The notes: generated by a model from the letters alone, not told the origin. A stretch of DNA of 32,000 nucleotides from Aliivibrio fischeri ES114 (GCF_000011805.1 NC_006841.2); one strand, 5' to 3'; positions 26,805 through 32,000 are shown, numbered from the stretch's first letter. Made by a program: numbers and translations.

Positions 26805-27632
26805 ATGATATTAGATATTTCGATGTGGATTTGGATCCCGCTTGCGTTGGCTATCATCTTAGCGTTTATCAATCAAATCAAAGCCAGTTTTGCCTTACTT
26901 GGTATCACCTTAATTGGTGCCATCATAGAGCAACGACTAAACATGATTGGGTTAGCGGGGATTGCGGCAGGTTTGCTTGTTGCCTACAAAACACCAAGCT
27001 TAGAGAAAAAATGGCAACTAGGGGCATACCTATTTATCTTCTTATGGTGCATTGCATTATTTCTTCATTTAATCCCCGGTTTTAACAACGCCAAGGTATT
27101 GGATGCCGTTGTTACCGGCCCATTAAGCGTTCCATTTACCTTATATTTAAACCTAGATAAACCGCTTATCTTATTTGGATTATTACTTGCTTATCCCGCT
27201 CTATTGGGAAGCAAAGCCAACATCAACAAAAAAGCACTTATTTATACTGCGATTCCACTTTTTAGCTTGTTGCCTCTTGCGTGGGGATTAGGTGCATTAA
27301 AACCAGAGTTCACGCTCCCTAATTGGTGGTGGTTGTTTGCATTAAATAACCTATTGCTAACTTGTGTAGCCGAAGAAGCCTTCTTCCGAGGTTTTATACA
27401 ACAATCACTCAGTAAACGATTTGGTTGGATAGCAGGGGTAGCCGTAGCCAGTGTGCTATTTGGTATTGCTCATATTGGCGGCGGTTTACTCTTGGTTGTT
27501 TTTGCTACCTTAGCCGGAGTAGGTTATGGGTTAGCCTTTCATTACAGCGCACGTTTGTGGGTAGCGGTTGCGTTCCACTTCTTGTTTAACTTCATGCATT
27601 TGGTGTTTTTCACATACCCAATAATGAAATAA
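26805..27632 (+). CDS. CPBP-family intramembrane glutamic endopeptidase (CAAX protease / Abi family)
   Basis: Polytopic membrane protein with the family's three motifs: EEAFFRGF, FGIAH and HFLFN. Confidence 0.88.
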   Translation: MILDISMWIWIPLALAIILAFINQIKASFALLGITLIGAIIEQRLNMIGLAGIAAGLLVAYKTPSLEKKWQLGAYLFIFLWCIALFLHLIPGFNNAKVLDAVVTGPLSVPFTLYLNLDKPLILFGLLLAYPALLGSKANINKKALIYTAIPLFSLLPLAWGLGALKPEFTLPNWWWLFALNNLLLTCVAEEAFFRGFIQQSLSKRFGWIAGVAVASVLFGIAHIGGGLLLVVFATLAGVGYGLAFHYSARLWVAVAFHFLFNFMHLVFFTYPIMK

Positions 27633-27796
27633 CTCACTCAATTTAAATAACTTTTATAAATGAAACTGAGTGGGCTTTTGCATTTATTTACTGACTTAAG
27701 CCAATAATTTGCGAAACCCCATTCAGTATATCTTGACCGTCATCACGCTTAGAACTAAAGTCTCACATATAAGAGACAATCATTTACTGAGGTTAT

Positions 27797-28033
27797 ATGA
27801 AAGTAGAAGCTGTTGGCAAAATTCAAATGGAATCCATTGAAAGAGAAAAAAGCCAAGAAGTATTAAAGAACAGCATTAGCAACATGAAAATGCAAAACGA
27901 AGGCGTCTACGACCAACAAGCCATTAACTTTGCGCTCAAGCGTGGAGAGATAAAAGAGCAAGAAATAGAATCCAGAGTAAACCGTTTAAAGATTTACATG
28001 GATAAGCAGCGAGAGCTAAACAACATCGCATAA
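27797..28033 (+). CDS. Hypothetical 78-aa charged, coiled-coil-like protein
   Basis: ORF with SD tgagg 5 nt upstream. I recognise no family motif. Confidence 0.45.
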   Translation: MKVEAVGKIQMESIEREKSQEVLKNSISNMKMQNEGVYDQQAINFALKRGEIKEQEIESRVNRLKIYMDKQRELNNIA

Positions 28034-28035
28034 CG

Positions 28036-28075
28036 CTTGATGATTAAGGAATTTTATAATTGCTTAATCATCAAG
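28036..28075. repeat. Perfect 13-bp inverted repeat (hairpin) between convergent genes
   Basis: cttgatgattaag (28036-28048), a 14-nt loop, then cttaatcatcaag (28063-28075). It starts 2 nt after the stop codon of the 78-aa ORF. There is no flanking T-run on either strand. Confidence 0.7.
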
Positions 28076-28093
28076 ATATTTACTCGTTAATGA

Positions 28094-28513
28094 TTAATCA
28101 AAACGAACCGCAACACCCACATAAAACGCATCATTATCATGAAACTCTTCATCAACGTCTTTGTATCCAGCTCTGATAGTCACACGTTCAAAATCGTACC
28201 CTATCTCAGCCCCAAGGCTGTAGCTGTAATCAATATCCCTATTAAAGTAATGCATGCCGACAATTGGCGCTAGGTAGAATTGTTGTTTACGAAAAGCCGG
28301 TTTAATGTTGATACCAAATGAATGAACATCTTGGTTCCATTTTGTGAAATCTAACTCATACCCAAAATCCAGCTCTTGGTTAACAGGGAAATAAAAGCCA
28401 GACTGTAAAGAATAAGCGTTGGAGTTTGAGAGAGCATCAGCACTAAAATATACCTGTGGCTTTGCGAAACAAACACCAGAGAACAGAGCTAACAATAAGA
28501 AATACTTTTTCAT
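28094..28513 (-). CDS. Small outer-membrane beta-barrel protein (OmpX/OmpW-size porin-family protein)
   Basis: Signal peptide MKKYFLLLALFSGVCFA-KP, alternating aromatic/aliphatic strands and the terminal strand ..FYVGVAVRFD. Confidence 0.78.
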   Translation of the reverse strand: MKKYFLLLALFSGVCFAKPQVYFSADALSNSNAYSLQSGFYFPVNQELDFGYELDFTKWNQDVHSFGINIKPAFRKQQFYLAPIVGMHYFNRDIDYSYSLGAEIGYDFERVTIRAGYKDVDEEFHDNDAFYVGVAVRFD

Positions 28514-28686
28514 TTAATACATATCATTCATTTGGAGAATATTTAATTCTAGCACGGCAGAAAGGTAAGAAGCACCCTTCGGGCAACCCGCTTTATTTCG
28601 CGAATTGGTGTGTCACTCATTCTTCGCAATACACCAATGGCTCAACCAAGCCACAAAACGCTTCGCTGTACGGGTTACAATCAGGG

Positions 28687-30549
28687 CTATTTATTAATGC
28701 TAATAGCTGCTGCTTCAAGACTTTCACTTAATTCATTTTCTTTATGATAAGTGGCTAATAAGTTATGAGTTGCTCGCGTCATTCCTACATATAATCGACG
28801 AATATCTTCTGATCTATTATCGCTTTTTTTAGGAATATTGGATGAGTTTAAAATTACTACTGTTTTAAATTCCAATCCTTTACTGCTAGGAATGGGAAGA
28901 ACGTTAACGACATCATTGATTGGATTATATTGTTTTTTATGCTCAGAAGTAGCGAGTAATATATGAGGTATACTTCTAGTTTTTAGTGCTTCAGCAACTT
29001 TTTTGCCAATATGTTTACAAGGATAAATTATGGCGATATCGCTCCATGCATATCCATTTTGTTTCCAATGAACTAAACATTTAACTGCATATTCAACTTC
29101 TTGATCCATCGTTGAGAATTTTTTAACAACAGGATGAGAGCCTGTAATACCAGCAGATTCAGGATGAATTAATGGGATTTCTTTAGTATCCGAATTATCA
29201 AAATATTGTTTAGCAAACTGATAAGAAAAAGATAGTATTTCTCTGGTATTACGATAGTTTAAACGTAATACTGTAGTTCTTCCTTGGGCTTGAATTCCAA
29301 CACTTGCTAAACTAAAGTCTAAATTGCTTTTTTTCTTGTAGATAGATTGAGCATCGTCATATAGTAATAATAACGAATTTGTTTCAGGATCAATCATTTG
29401 AGTAATTAATGTTAGCCATTCTGCTTCAAAATCATGTCCTTCATCAATCAATAGTGCTCCATACTGCCCTTTTGGTATATTTCCTTTTTCAACACCCTCT
29501 ATGACAGTTTCAACTTGTCTTTCCCAATAAGGGGCTTCGCCCTTTTGAATATCTAAATTGTAAGTTTTAATTTGTTGCCCACACCAATCATGAAAATGAT
29601 AGACCTGAACTTGTCCTGCAATACCTTTATCATTGATAAAGCTACGGAGCCTTGCCGCTAATGTGATATTAAAGCAGAGTACTAAAATTGGTTTTTTTAA
29701 TTGCTCGGCTAAATGTAAGCAACGATAACCTAAGATCAACGTTTTTCCGGAACCAGCTACGCCATGAATGACTCGATGTCCATCACCTAAGCTTCTAGCT
29801 AACTGCTCCTGTTGAATATCCATGATTTTAATTATTTCAGGAATGTGATCATTTGGATTTATTAATTCGTTCGTATCTTCTAGAGGTAGCAGAGTTTGTT
29901 GTTCTGATGTTGAAATACGAATTTCTGGAAATAGATGCCATCGAATTCTATCAATTTGTGGTAATGATAATTGGTTTCCAAATTTATAATTGAACATATT
30001 CCAGAGTTTTGTTTGAAACTTTTCAGGATCTATTGTACTTACCATTTCATCTTTACAAATGACTAAGTGATGTGGAAGTACCGAGTCTTGAGCGTCTAAA
30101 GGAATAGCTCGATCTAACTGAATGCGAGTAATATTGGTTAATACAACGCCATACCCATAAGGAAGACACAAGTTACCTTTATATTTCCCATCTTGATTTA
30201 TAAGTAAGTTATCTCGTTTTAGTTTATCTATGACTTGATAACTACATTGACGTACTTGCTCAATAGGATTACTTGTTGTTTCAATGCCTTTTGATGTTAG
30301 TAATTCGACACGAGACGCATCTATATTTCTGATAGTATCAAGTTTCCAATCTTTTACTTCAAGAAATAGTAACCCACGTGCGGGATGTAAGATAATGAAA
30401 TCAGGGTAACGTCGTTGGCGTCCAACAGGGATGTCATACCAACATATGTAATCATCCTCTAATAAGTTTTCAACACGTTGCGCGAAACGTTTTTCTCCTG
30501 CCGTCATTTTAGATAAACAGGTATTTAATGTTGGTATTAGTTCAGCCAT
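28687..30549 (-). CDS. NERD (PD-(D/E)xK nuclease-related) domain fused to a UvrD-like SF1 helicase/ATPase
   Basis: 620 aa. The N-terminal NERD signature is AGEKRFAQRVENLL...YPDFIILHPARGLLFLEVKDW (D50 ... E64-x-K66). Walker A is GVAGSGKT (aa 263-270, nt 29740-29763). Walker B is LLIDEGHDF (D369, E370). The C-terminal UvrD_C-like motifs are SSKGLEFKTVVIL and LYVGMTRATHNL. Confidence 0.9.
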   Translation of the reverse strand: MAELIPTLNTCLSKMTAGEKRFAQRVENLLEDDYICWYDIPVGRQRRYPDFIILHPARGLLFLEVKDWKLDTIRNIDASRVELLTSKGIETTSNPIEQVRQCSYQVIDKLKRDNLLINQDGKYKGNLCLPYGYGVVLTNITRIQLDRAIPLDAQDSVLPHHLVICKDEMVSTIDPEKFQTKLWNMFNYKFGNQLSLPQIDRIRWHLFPEIRISTSEQQTLLPLEDTNELINPNDHIPEIIKIMDIQQEQLARSLGDGHRVIHGVAGSGKTLILGYRCLHLAEQLKKPILVLCFNITLAARLRSFINDKGIAGQVQVYHFHDWCGQQIKTYNLDIQKGEAPYWERQVETVIEGVEKGNIPKGQYGALLIDEGHDFEAEWLTLITQMIDPETNSLLLLYDDAQSIYKKKSNLDFSLASVGIQAQGRTTVLRLNYRNTREILSFSYQFAKQYFDNSDTKEIPLIHPESAGITGSHPVVKKFSTMDQEVEYAVKCLVHWKQNGYAWSDIAIIYPCKHIGKKVAEALKTRSIPHILLATSEHKKQYNPINDVVNVLPIPSSKGLEFKTVVILNSSNIPKKSDNRSEDIRRLYVGMTRATHNLLATYHKENELSESLEAAAISINK

Positions 30550-30819
30550 TTATTTGTACTACTAAGGCAATAATCTTACAATTATAAGCTTTTGTCCTAT
30601 TTTAAATCGTGATCTATAACAAAATTATATAACGACTTGATAAGTATGGATTTATTTAGTTTAGATTAACTTGTTTGTTAAAGATTAAGCTATGGAATAC
30701 ATTAATGGTATTTTTATAAAATCGAAATACTAAAAATGTCACTTATATCTCGTTTTTTATCATGCATCTAGATAAGATACTGATTATTAAAGTTTGATTT
30801 GTATTTTTTAGGATGAAGT

Positions 30820-31947
30820 ATGTCTGTTGAGTATTATGTAGACAAGTTCCGTAACTTAAACATGAATAGTAATAAAGGGAGAAAGAGCCCACATAAAGTA
30901 TGCATGTTACTTTCTGTTATGGACTTAATACAAGCGGGCTATATTTATAAAAATAGATTTCAACTTGATGCTACGTTAAAAGAACGTTTTACTCATTTCT
31001 TTAATGAGCGTAGGCATGAACAAGACCGAGATACTCCAGAGAATCCTTTTTTTCACCTTAAAAGTGAAGGTTTTTGGCATTTAGCTTATCAAGATGGTAT
31101 TGATGCTTCTCTTGTTAAAGGATACTCCGCTAAAGCTATTAATTATGCTTATTTGGATGATGAGCTATTTGATTACTTAAAAAGTATAATTGTTGTTAAT
31201 GATTTAAAAGATGCATTAGTTGAAAATTTATCTGATTTAACTGACCTTTACACTCAATGGTTGATTGATGTTGGGAAGTCAGAAAAAACTGCTAAAAATT
31301 ACTCTCAAGCGATTAGAGGTTCTATTTCAAATTGGATGATACAAGAGAATATTTTGGAAGAACCATTAACAAAAGTGAAGTCTTTTCGTGAGTTTTGTCG
31401 GCTATCTGAAACTGCTCGCTCTCTTGAGAAGTTTAAAAAGTTTAATGCAAACGGAAATCATATGTATAGCGCTGCATTAAATTCATATCAGCGCTTTTTA
31501 GCAGATTTATCGCAAGTTGATGTAAAAGCAGATATTCAAGAAATTTTTGAGGATAACAAACTTACCCAAACGGAAAAAACCATTATGGTTAATACTCGTA
31601 TGGGACAGGGGACATTTAGAAAGCAACTAATAGAAATGTGGAAAGGCTGCTCTGTTACTGGATATAAGAACACTCAGATGCTTGTTGCTTCTCATATAAA
31701 ACCATGGCGTGAAGCTAATAATACAGAACGTTTAGATAAATATAATGGACTACTGTTACTTGCTAATTTAGATAAAGCATTCGATCTTGGTTTTATCTCT
31801 TTTCAAAATTCAGGAAAATTAATGATATCGAGTCAATTGGAGGCTCCAGAGGTATTAGGGCTTAGAGATGATATGATCTTTAATGTTCACCGTGAGCATA
31901 AAAAGTATTTAGACCATCATCGTAAAATTTTATTCAAAGGTTTTTAG
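30820..31947 (+). CDS. Multidomain HNH nuclease: N-terminal reader-like domain, helical SAM-like/core-binding-like linker, C-terminal HNH_2-type nuclease. Candidate type IV (modification-dependent) restriction enzyme.
   Basis: 375 aa, SD aggatga. The C-terminus is RMGQGTFRKQLIEMWKGCSVTG...LVASHIKPW...RLDKYNGLLLLANLDKAFDLGFISF, the COG3440/HNH_2-style signature. The N-terminus has KSPHKVCMLLSVMDLIQAG ... ENPFFHLKSEGFWHL. The middle has SEKTAKNYSQAIRGSIS ... GNHMYSAALNSYQRFL. Confidence 0.88.
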   Translation: MSVEYYVDKFRNLNMNSNKGRKSPHKVCMLLSVMDLIQAGYIYKNRFQLDATLKERFTHFFNERRHEQDRDTPENPFFHLKSEGFWHLAYQDGIDASLVKGYSAKAINYAYLDDELFDYLKSIIVVNDLKDALVENLSDLTDLYTQWLIDVGKSEKTAKNYSQAIRGSISNWMIQENILEEPLTKVKSFREFCRLSETARSLEKFKKFNANGNHMYSAALNSYQRFLADLSQVDVKADIQEIFEDNKLTQTEKTIMVNTRMGQGTFRKQLIEMWKGCSVTGYKNTQMLVASHIKPWREANNTERLDKYNGLLLLANLDKAFDLGFISFQNSGKLMISSQLEAPEVLGLRDDMIFNVHREHKKYLDHHRKILFKGF

Positions 31948-32000
31948 TTTTATTAGAATTGCATTTAACCATTTTTCATTGGCACGATTAGGGCGCAAAT

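Follow-up and report, generated by a model that had tools for sequence, protein, structure and literature searches.

At its right-hand end the window, by which we mean the whole stretch of 32,000 nucleotides from Aliivibrio fischeri ES114 (GCF_000011805.1 NC_006841.2) analysed here, carries two long, divergent open reading frames (ORFs), gene A and gene B, and the question that this locus raises is whether they belong to antiviral or anti-plasmid defence and, if so, whether they act as one system or as two. An earlier note, made from the sequence alone, had described them as a NERD nuclease-helicase and an HNH nuclease transcribed away from a 270-bp, very AT-rich spacer, and had taken the pair for an uncharacterised defence islet. 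The ORF listing confirms both genes, their limits and the length of the spacer (Table 1), and the view that both encode intact nucleic-acid enzymes is supported. Our best reading, to which we assign a probability of about 0.6, is that two modules are stacked at this locus: a predicted phosphorothioate (PT)-dependent type IV restriction enzyme (gene B) with a small methyltransferase as its neighbour, and an autonomous nuclease-helicase (gene A).

The N-terminal 138 residues of gene B find their closest solved relative in the sulfur-binding domain (SBD) of Hga, a PT-dependent restriction enzyme of Hahella ganghwensis (PMC10602919). With a profile built from an alignment of 24 gene B homologues, the match to SBDHga bound to PT-DNA (PDB 8h0l) has E=1.1e-40, and the AlphaFold2 model of gene B (pLDDT 71) superposes on the same structure with a TM score of 0.81, a root mean square deviation of 2.5 Å and 44% identity; the SBDs of SprMcrA and ScoMcrA match the model more weakly. 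The sulfur cavity of SBDHga is made of H25, K26, L75, P76 and H79, with backbone contacts from R70 and N72 (PMC10602919). Under the same numbering gene B has H25, K26, N75, P76, H79 and R70; across the 24-homologue alignment H25, K26 and P76 are invariant and N75 is nearly so. The region is also as long in gene B as in Hga, whose short L4 loop is associated with sequence-promiscuous PT binding, and we assign the gene B SBD to this Hga type rather than to the ScoMcrA type. The two domains do differ, in that the basic L1 residues R17, R18 and H19 of SBDHga are replaced by S17, N18 and K19, in addition to the substitution at position 75, and in that the Hga SBD is joined to a PD-(D/E)xK nuclease whereas that of gene B is joined to a helical domain and an HNH domain.

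The C-terminal part, residues 228-374, matches VcaM4I of Vibrio campbellii (PDB 6yex; E=1.1e-37 in the profile search), an EVE-HNH enzyme dependent on 5-methylcytosine or 5-hydroxymethylcytosine (PMC7897488) whose HNH domain is 33-37% identical to that of gene B. The validated catalytic residues of VcaM4I, H224, D250 and D254 (PMC7897488), align with H292, D318 and D322 of gene B, and these, together with N309, are invariant in the family. In both proteins a reader is joined to the HNH domain through helices, but the reader of gene B is an SBD and not an EVE/PUA domain, and so the mark it senses would be expected on the DNA backbone rather than on a flipped base. The helical middle domain (five helices, pLDDT about 75-91) gave no fold match in a search of the PDB; by analogy with the linker helix of VcaM4I (PMC7897488) it may be a linker or an autoinhibitory element. 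Middle and HNH domains together also make up stand-alone, SBD-less proteins of about 234 residues in many phyla, which sometimes adjoin Dcm-type methyltransferases, Vsr genes or integrases.

The combination of a sulfur-binding reader with an HNH nuclease recalls SprMcrA and ScoMcrA, type IV enzymes that restrict PT-DNA (PMC7470945, PMC7461809). Their SBDs, however, are only 12-17% identical to that of gene B (TM scores 0.47-0.63), and gene B differs from them in its extra middle domain of about 95 residues and from these and other SBD-HNH type IV enzymes in having a conserved small methyltransferase as its neighbour, a feature of which the paper on Hga and its SBD makes no mention (PMC10602919). 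The NCBIfam model PT-DNA_restrict matches both ends of gene B at 61 bits, below its cut-off of 180. Because of its SBD-helical-HNH architecture we place gene B as a new member of the PT-dependent type IV restriction enzymes, with PT-dependent cleavage as its predicted activity. SBD-HNH enzymes are a known kind, as are defence hotspots and candidate NERD-helicases; gene B is a new member with an unusual SBD, of the Hga type, an extra domain and a conserved methyltransferase partner. The three-part HNH protein with a modification reader that the earlier note described is thus borne out by profile, NCBIfam and fold matches.

Two kinds of damaged relatives were seen. In V. coralliilyticus-type loci (L105-L107, 7925-9072, and L110) the SBD-HNH gene has broken up into ORFs of 111 and 263 residues, with no call in L105; the nuclease is decaying there while the methyltransferase and the neighbouring homologue of gene A are intact. 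A 427-aa protein of Vibrio sp. Hep-1b-8 (P0114), labelled simply 'HNH endonuclease' in the database, carries an in-frame deletion that joins methyltransferase residue ~134 to gene B residue ~82, with the loss of most of the SBD. We considered it as a Rosetta-stone fusion and rejected this; it is probably a decayed copy and is evidence of adjacency only.

The first of the two modules is defined by what surrounds gene B in other species. Its neighbourhoods come from a scan of genome contigs, of which the best 80 of more than 596 matches were taken, a sample and not a census; 36 species loci with full-length gene B homologues were compared, their neighbours being found by tblastn and ORF clustering. 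A class-I methyltransferase of about 200 residues directly adjoins the gene B homologue in 28 of these 36 loci (28 of the 34 in which both flanks are readable); in most cases it precedes that gene on the same strand, 10-30 bp away, and no other neighbour is common to the gene B loci. An orthologue of gene A is present at none of the 36; one locus has a NERD helicase of 24% identity. The two-gene system that the earlier note implied therefore does not emerge from the gene B side, where the recurrent partner is the methyltransferase. The adjacent methyltransferases fall into two subfamilies with a mutual identity of about 25%: MT-A, at 26 loci, and MT-B, in A. fischeri and at two further loci, L022 and L050.

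The A. fischeri member of MT-B, MT196, is a class-I S-adenosylmethionine (SAM) methyltransferase of 196 residues (contig L001, 11111-11701, minus strand; window offset 20819) that runs convergently with gene B and overlaps its 3' end by 18 bp. The earlier note had counted exactly two genes, which this third low-G+C gene corrects, but had also allowed for further partners past the right edge of the window, and on extended contigs MT196 is such a partner. Pfam assigns it to Methyltransf_25/11/12/23, with weak TehB and TPMT matches confined to the N-terminal SAM-binding part (aa 36-92 and 5-112) and a match to the D12 DNA methyltransferases that is below the cut-off (19.9 against 22 bits) and limited to the SAM-binding region; NCBIfam gives only sub-threshold matches to small-molecule methyltransferases. 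The AlphaFold2 model (pLDDT 95.5) has as its best fold neighbours an uncharacterised Rhodopseudomonas palustris protein (3e23), followed by toxoflavin, protein N-terminal, halide and tRNA methyltransferases, and the fold search suggested no substrate. The sequence contains no PP dipeptide and hence no [DNS]PP[YFW] motif, no C5-methyltransferase motif and no target-recognition domain. Lacking the dipeptide and the target-recognition domain, and with non-DNA enzymes as its fold neighbours, MT196 is not a recognisable DNA base methyltransferase. The only PADLOC match is a partial one to the methyltransferase domain of mad2 (E=2e-16); assignment of the locus to MADS or a Dnd-type set was rejected, no other component being present in the window-type allele. 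MT196-like methyltransferases recur beside SBD-HNH proteins, reader-less PLD-helicases, HNH_4 proteins and dnd genes, and this conserved small methyltransferase beside such nucleases is the main unexplained observation of our analysis.

Among the relatives of these methyltransferases, a 566-residue protein, p566, fuses an MT-A-type class-I methyltransferase, a domain of about 230 residues without assignment and an HNH_4 nuclease (L099:11189-12889, L100:6883-8583, L203-L205). At the hotspot described below it is a stable right-hand resident, in several strains of A. fischeri as well as in A. wodanis and A. finisterrensis, and it has weak PADLOC matches to PDC-M01B; longer relatives (562-1282 aa) adjoin SBD-less HNH homologues in four other phyla-level loci. 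The idea that p566, or a 367-aa HNH_4 protein of dnd+ strains, hides an SBD-HNH fusion was rejected (hhalign probability against the gene B family at most about 1%, no SBD match in the PDB). The loci L022 and L050, in metagenome-assembled genomes labelled Geopsychrobacteraceae, hold an SBD-HNH protein of 62-63% identity and an MT196-type methyltransferase of 49-57% identity, both closest to the Vibrionaceae versions, which would reflect either horizontal transfer to a distant phylum or mis-binning.

Gene A, which would form the second module, bears out the NERD nuclease fused to a superfamily 1 helicase of the earlier note: its Pfam matches are NERD, then UvrD-helicase, AAA_19, UvrD_C and UvrD_C_2. 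Going by the general PD-(D/E)xK pattern, D50, E64 and K66, within 'YPDF...LEVKDW', are its putative catalytic residues; the helicase motifs comprise a Walker A sequence, GVAGSGKT (aa 263-270), DEGHD (aa 369-373) and the motif VI TRA (aa 591-593). Since D50, E64, K66, the GSGKT of Walker A, DEGHD and TRA are all invariant across 24 homologues of 59-88% identity, the protein looks active. A homologue search returned at least 8000 sequences, labelled 'DNA helicase II' or '3'-5' exonuclease' by NCBI, of which the best 120, all at least 59% identical, come from Vibrionaceae, Microbulbifer, Sedimenticola, Methylococcales and one alphaproteobacterium.

Profile matches of gene A in the PDB are only to SF1A helicases of the PcrA, UvrD, Rep and HelD types and cover the helicase part. 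The best PADLOC model is PDLC01087, 'C3a187 NERD+UvrD' (E=3.6e-170; aa 1-613 against model positions 1-555 of 559), a match over the full length. C3a187 is a candidate that a 2018 survey of the gene neighbourhoods of type III CRISPR loci put forward, with 3 occurrences near type III cas genes (PMC6546367); we found no cas genes in the extended A. fischeri contigs or the other Vibrionaceae loci, and no recurring cas-like cluster among 80 metagenomic gene A loci. With this match, and with gene B placed among the SBD-HNH type IV enzymes, the statement of the earlier note that the two genes could be placed in no named system no longer holds. PADLOC models for Nhi, GajB, AbiO and the reverse transcriptase (RT)-associated NERD helicase match gene A only in part. 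Mokosh type I and Nhi-like defences are listed with NERD domains (PMC10952713), and gene A resembles Nhi and Nhi-like proteins in its N-terminal nuclease (NERD in the Nhi-like ones) followed by a superfamily 1 helicase, in being mostly solitary and in lying among defence genes. Its helicase, unlike that of the PADLOC Nhi model, is of the SF1A UvrD/PcrA type, and membership of Nhi was rejected (match to aa 247-295 only, E=3.7e-5, 20.5 bits). Gabija was likewise rejected, in agreement with the earlier note, as the GajB models match only partially (best E=2.4e-22) and a GajA-like gene is absent from the 10 kb to the left and to the right; so was a DRT system, as RTasNERD-Hel matches the helicase region only (E=2e-23) with no neighbouring RT gene. 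ZwsA, a NERD RNase described in a preprint, differs in architecture and was set aside as a counterpart. Our literature searches found no characterised NERD-UvrD defence gene.

That the locus serves defence is indicated by the place it occupies. A look-up with an identical 78-aa flank protein recovered ten A. fischeri assemblies with the same flanks and differing cargo. The slot lies between a gene for a 139-aa outer-membrane protein (OMP139) and a DUF900 hydrolase gene, beyond which core genes follow (a Na/sulfate symporter, PFL, GbpA), on chromosome II by synteny with the MJ11 record CP001133. The window-type cargo, of about 3.9 kb, is NERD-UvrD, SBD-HNH and MT196 with or without a 179-aa ORF, p179; it is present in at least 12 of the 23 contigs examined, and also in GCA_004685055.1. 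In L202 a 352-aa zinc-ribbon protein replaces gene A while gene B and MT196 are kept. L203 has a PDC-M11B-like protein, a type II restriction endonuclease, a C5 methyltransferase and p566, and retains 147 bp from the 3' end of gene A as a remnant; L204 has a PLD-helicase-like ORF and p566; L205 has an NgoFVII-like fragment, two C5 methyltransferases, another HNH_2 protein and p566. The strains of L206-L208, which include MJ11, carry DndF, DndG and DndH (PADLOC E from 5e-233 to 0). For MJ11 a 17.9-kb dndBCDE island and dptFGH homologues have been described on chromosome II (PMC2663466, PMC2978375), and the Dnd island sits in this same slot. Read from the DUF900 side, dnd+ strains have a 682-aa protein of TIGR04096, 'DNA phosphorothioation-associated putative methyltransferase' (E=6e-230), a 196-aa paralogue of MT196 (54% identical), the 367-aa HNH_4 protein, dndB, dndC and dndD.

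The borders of the exchange are sharp. When the window-type locus was compared by blastn with five other A. fischeri hotspot alleles, homology of 95-97% ended at about 28670 (L210 position 8874) in L202, L204, L205 and L206, so that the cargo begins there and not at 28514, where the earlier note had set the start of the locus; 28514-28670 is conserved flank that all the strains have in common. Homology of L202 to the window type resumes at L210 position 10920, window position 30716, and continues through gene B and the methyltransferase; this recombination junction (about 30715/30716), 104 bp upstream of the gene B start codon, divides the spacer into a part proximal to gene A and a part of 104 bp proximal to gene B. 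The right edge of the variable cargo is about 570 bp past the window edge. Direct repeats of att type were sought around the whole islet and none was found, only the p179 mini-insert being bracketed. The alignment with related strains that the earlier note had proposed thus yields both a presence/absence polymorphism and its junctions, and because restriction-modification (R-M) and dnd cargoes swap in the same slot across sharp junctions, the defence-islet reading is well supported: what the window shows is one of several alleles at a defence hotspot that is hypervariable.

It could instead be held that these are AT-rich enzymes of DNA repair or housekeeping, a view that the NCBI names of the gene A homologues and the conservation of the arrangement in three Aliivibrio species would favour. 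We find it hardly tenable, given that some strains carry these genes in the slot and others R-M or Dnd cargo instead, that the genes occur on plasmids and at prophage edges, and that their neighbours include hsdM/hsdS, type IV enzymes, BrxR, JetD and HipA.

Within this slot, a PT-writing island and a predicted PT-reading nuclease are alternative alleles. The Dnd island of MJ11 (PMC2663466, PMC2978375) concerns the same DNA mark as the one predicted for gene B, but whereas Dnd writes PT and restricts unmodified DNA, the window allele has a predicted PT reader-nuclease. In the strains examined, dndF, dndG and dndH come first after the OMP139 flank (L206-L208, 9112-16237), and the other end of the island is at the DUF900 flank (L213-L217, 3943-12591), where the methyltransferase and HNH_4 genes are 1 bp apart; neither has a named role in Dnd systems. 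Alternative writer and reader alleles of this kind are reminiscent of the DpnI and DpnII cassettes of pneumococcus.

On the two-module reading, then, the SBDHga-like domain of gene B would dock on Rp-phosphorothioate linkages of incoming DNA through its surface cavity (H25, K26, N75, P76, H79), and the VcaM4I-like HNH domain (H292, D318, D322) would dimerise and cut nearby DNA, the helical middle domain perhaps restraining it. The host's own DNA would escape, since at the slot this allele stands in place of the PT-writing dnd island, and for the same reason DNA or phages coming from dnd+ relatives would be the targets. Gene A would load on DNA and use ATP to unwind and degrade it, as Nhi-like single-gene defences do, and it may finish off DNA nicked or cut by a neighbouring nuclease. 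The domain identities, the conserved residues of cavity and catalytic site, the polymorphism of the hotspot and the counts of co-occurrence are observations; PT-dependent cleavage, a role of gene A in defence and any joint action of the modules are predicted from them.

Several observations weigh against this picture. The assignment of gene B draws on homology, conserved residues and a predicted fold, and the alternation of dnd with gene B is established for this one slot. At cavity position 75 gene B has Asn where SBDHga has Leu and SBDSpr and SBDSco have Tyr, so that its ligand could differ. A modification-dependent enzyme, moreover, should need no methyltransferase, yet one is conserved beside the gene B family. 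In A. fischeri MT196 could be a leftover of the methyltransferase-HNH_4 operon seen in the dnd allele, although the adjacency of both methyltransferase subfamilies to SBD-HNH genes across species supports a link despite this caveat. On the gene A side, the arrangement with a methyltransferase-nuclease pair is repeated in unrelated genomic contexts, and a clade-structured placement is seen in two lineages, as set out below.

A rival reading is that the N-terminal domain of gene B no longer senses PT but some different mark, on the backbone or on a base, which the methyltransferase might write or erase, the two making up a new modification-restriction pair. Residue 75, hydrophobic (Leu or Tyr) in validated SBDs, is Asn in almost the whole family; the pairing with a methyltransferase goes specifically with the SBD-bearing homologues, the 234-aa SBD-less relatives being mostly without such a neighbour; and two methyltransferase subfamilies of low mutual identity occupy the same position. 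Nevertheless, four of the five cavity residues and R70 are identical to those of SBDHga, in domains whose identity and superposition are as given above, the alternation with the dnd island fits PT reading, and MT196 is without DNA-methyltransferase motifs and folds near small-molecule and protein methyltransferases. We therefore judge a different ligand to be quite improbable.

A conserved methyltransferase beside a nuclease could also point to classical type II-like R-M, in which the methyltransferase protects the host and the HNH enzyme cuts unmodified foreign DNA. Some database records do label homologues 'type II restriction endonuclease' or 'HphI', PADLOC type II restriction endonuclease/HNH models match the gene B HNH domain, and the methyltransferase-nuclease order with gaps of 20-30 bp resembles an R-M operon. 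But a protein of 196 residues with no target-recognition domain and with neither [DNS]PP[YFW] nor C5-methyltransferase motifs, whose sole DNA-methyltransferase match in Pfam (D12) is sub-threshold and whose best folds are uncharacterised or small-molecule methyltransferases, is a poor candidate for the protecting partner, and the reader domain of gene B is an SBD; we hold this explanation to be highly improbable.

Whether gene A belongs with gene B is the more difficult question, for which we turned to the surroundings of NERD-UvrD genes in 80 metagenomic loci, on contigs that are often short, and to a tree of simple neighbour-joining type built on identities. NERD-UvrD has no universal neighbour among the 80 loci. 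The genes found beside it repeatedly are those for HNH_2 reader-nucleases (7 loci) and SauUSI-like PLD-helicases (5), and type I hsdM/hsdS; it is solitary on a conjugative plasmid of V. harveyi and on megaplasmids of Ralstonia, and it lies at the ends of eight IMG/VR contigs. The Vibrionaceae proteins form one clade in the tree, and in five of six Vibrionaceae lineages NERD-UvrD divergently adjoins a methyltransferase-nuclease pair: in P. damselae, P. piscicola and V. porteresiae an MT-B gene followed by a PLD-helicase of about 805 residues, which matches the PADLOC type IV mREase model (E=1e-94) and is without the DUF3427 reader; in V. coralliilyticus an MT-A gene followed by the split SBD-HNH; and in Aliivibrio species SBD-HNH plus MT196 or p566. 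Of the 10 evaluable loci in a second NERD-UvrD clade, 6 have a reader-nuclease no more than two ORFs away, several of the pairs being co-directional with gaps of 2-97 bp (L152, L171, L129, L144), and some of these gaps measuring only 2-28 bp; in the other clades such a neighbour is found in 3 of 55 loci. This clade-structured placement argues for more than chance stacking.

These associations would be explained if NERD-UvrD, the small class-I methyltransferase and a modification-linked nuclease (SBD-HNH or reader-less PLD-helicase) were a single cooperative system, in which the nuclease-methyltransferase pair recognises or marks DNA that the helicase-nuclease then destroys processively. The repeated Vibrionaceae arrangement and the closely spaced pairs of the second clade speak for it, and the flanking genes of the Vibrionaceae trio differ in every genus, which implies that the trio moved as a unit or re-formed. 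We nonetheless consider a single system unlikely, though it is a serious contender. Full SauUSI-like enzymes work alone. So does the reader-HNH enzyme VcaM4I (PMC7897488). L202 keeps SBD-HNH and methyltransferase without NERD-UvrD; the 36 gene B loci and the other NERD-UvrD clades give the low counts already stated; and the window genes are divergent, with the recombination junction between their promoters. Being swappable (L202), mostly solitary and served by its own promoter side of the spacer, gene A appears as an autonomous module. Its persistent association with nucleases in two lineages makes synergy with gene B plausible; obligate cooperation is unlikely.

Some of these NERD-UvrD loci have features of their own. 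In P. damselae a small ORF just downstream of NERD-UvrD (L102:11957-12313, L104:11961-12311) is 65-68% identical to the first ~120 residues of TIGR04096, a remnant which suggests that the NERD-UvrD cassette once lay beside a dnd island there too. The only Vibrionaceae locus without a methyltransferase-nuclease pair is that of V. splendidus (L188:5507-7001), which adjoins a P2-like prophage integrase and has upstream a 1.5-kb stretch without a called gene, in which tblastn found no methyltransferase or nuclease remnant. Two of the SauUSI-like PLD-helicase-DUF3427 proteins beside NERD-UvrD have extra domains, an S24 LexA-like peptidase in L153:3889-7218 and an N-terminal HIT domain in L175:117-3719.

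A broader proposal would take the methyltransferase itself as the common element. The class-I methyltransferases of about 190-220 residues, which in both subfamilies are without DNA-methyltransferase motifs, might be an unrecognised component of modification-sensing immunity tied to PT biology, partnering SBD-HNH enzymes, reader-less SauUSI-like PLD-helicases, HNH_4 proteins (fused or translationally coupled) and dndBCDE islands. Their target could be the sulfur of PT or the backbone of the DNA, or their task could be to regulate the nuclease, and in Vibrionaceae they would make up a mobile three-gene cassette with the NERD-UvrD helicase-nuclease. We advance this as speculation that is more likely wrong than right by a wide measure; if true, it would establish 'methyltransferase-assisted type IV' systems as a new class.

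Our literature searches found no description of writer/reader allelism at one A. fischeri locus, of small methyltransferases paired with type IV-like nucleases, or of a clade-specific linkage of NERD-UvrD to type IV-like nucleases. If the two-module reading is right, strains of one species hold either a PT writer or a predicted PT reader in one slot, a natural polymorphism that would hinder, in a concrete way, both the flow of genes and the spread of phages in a well-studied symbiont species. A methyltransferase partner of non-DNA type would point to a missing step in control or sensing by modification-dependent nucleases, the clade-specific pairing with type IV nucleases would suggest a role for a NERD-UvrD family of this size, and an SBD related to the sequence-promiscuous SBDHga would be of practical interest for PT-targeting applications.

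Table 1. Features of the right-hand end of the window, in window coordinates.
Feature	Position	Strand	Description
Conserved left flank, upstream of 139-aa OMP gene	28514..28670		blastn homology; G+C 0.44
Gene A	28687..30549	-	ORF; 620-aa NERD (PD-(D/E)xK) nuclease and SF1A UvrD/PcrA-type helicase fusion
Gene A SF1A helicase core	28735..29841	-	aa 237-605, Pfam and NCBIfam matches
Gene A NERD domain	30217..30501	-	aa 17-111, Pfam PF08378, E=1.8e-11
Divergent spacer	30550..30819		270 bp, 23% G+C
Gene B	30820..31947	+	ORF; 375 aa
Gene B SBD	30820..31233	+	aa 1-138, N-terminal, profile match to PDB 8h0l
Gene B helical middle domain	31234..31524	+	aa 139-235, predicted structure
Gene B HNH (HNH_2) nuclease domain	31525..31947	+	aa 236-375 plus stop codon, Pfam HNH_2, E=3.4e-9
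MT196 3' end (last 22 codons and stop)	31930..32000	-	truncated by window edge

The composition of the locus sets it apart, if less strongly than first thought. Spot counts in the earlier note had put it at 28-33% G+C against 40-42% elsewhere; the deviation is real, but the contrast is one of about 5 points and not 10, with a G+C of 0.327 over 28687-31947 and 0.382 in the rest of the window. Sliding windows of the same size across 1-28513 have a mean of 0.382, a standard deviation of 0.011 (1.07 points) and a minimum of 0.356, so that the locus lies about 5 standard deviations under the mean and none of them is as low. The third-codon-position G+C of genes A and B, 0.21 and 0.25, is at the low end among window genes. 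The spacer was rightly called very AT-rich, its G+C being the lowest among all intergenic regions of the window. Past the window edge the low values continue through MT196 (0.327) and p179 (0.326), and return to 0.416 in the DUF900 gene. An Rfam scan of 27500-32000 found no structured RNA at E<=0.1; a search for terminator-like sites gave none, and promoter-like sites were scarcer than in shuffled sequence, results that are uninformative in AT-rich DNA. One sigma-70-like match, a weak consensus match only, lies at 30736-30763 on the plus strand, in the part of the spacer retained with gene B.

Two minor residents of the slot complete the description. The 352-aa protein at the NERD-UvrD position of L202 (8905-9963, minus strand) is rich in CxxC zinc-ribbon motifs and has no match in Pfam (precomputed annotation), NCBIfam or PADLOC; it is perhaps another defence candidate. 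To the right of MT196, p179 (L001:11756-12650, about 0.9-1.8 kb right of the window edge) encodes 179 residues with a weak Imm11 match (E=2e-4), and its segment of 841 bp lies between two copies, 89% identical, of a 54-nt direct repeat. L209 and L202 are without this segment and have a single copy of the repeat, which points to an independent mini-insertion or to deletion by recombination between the repeats.

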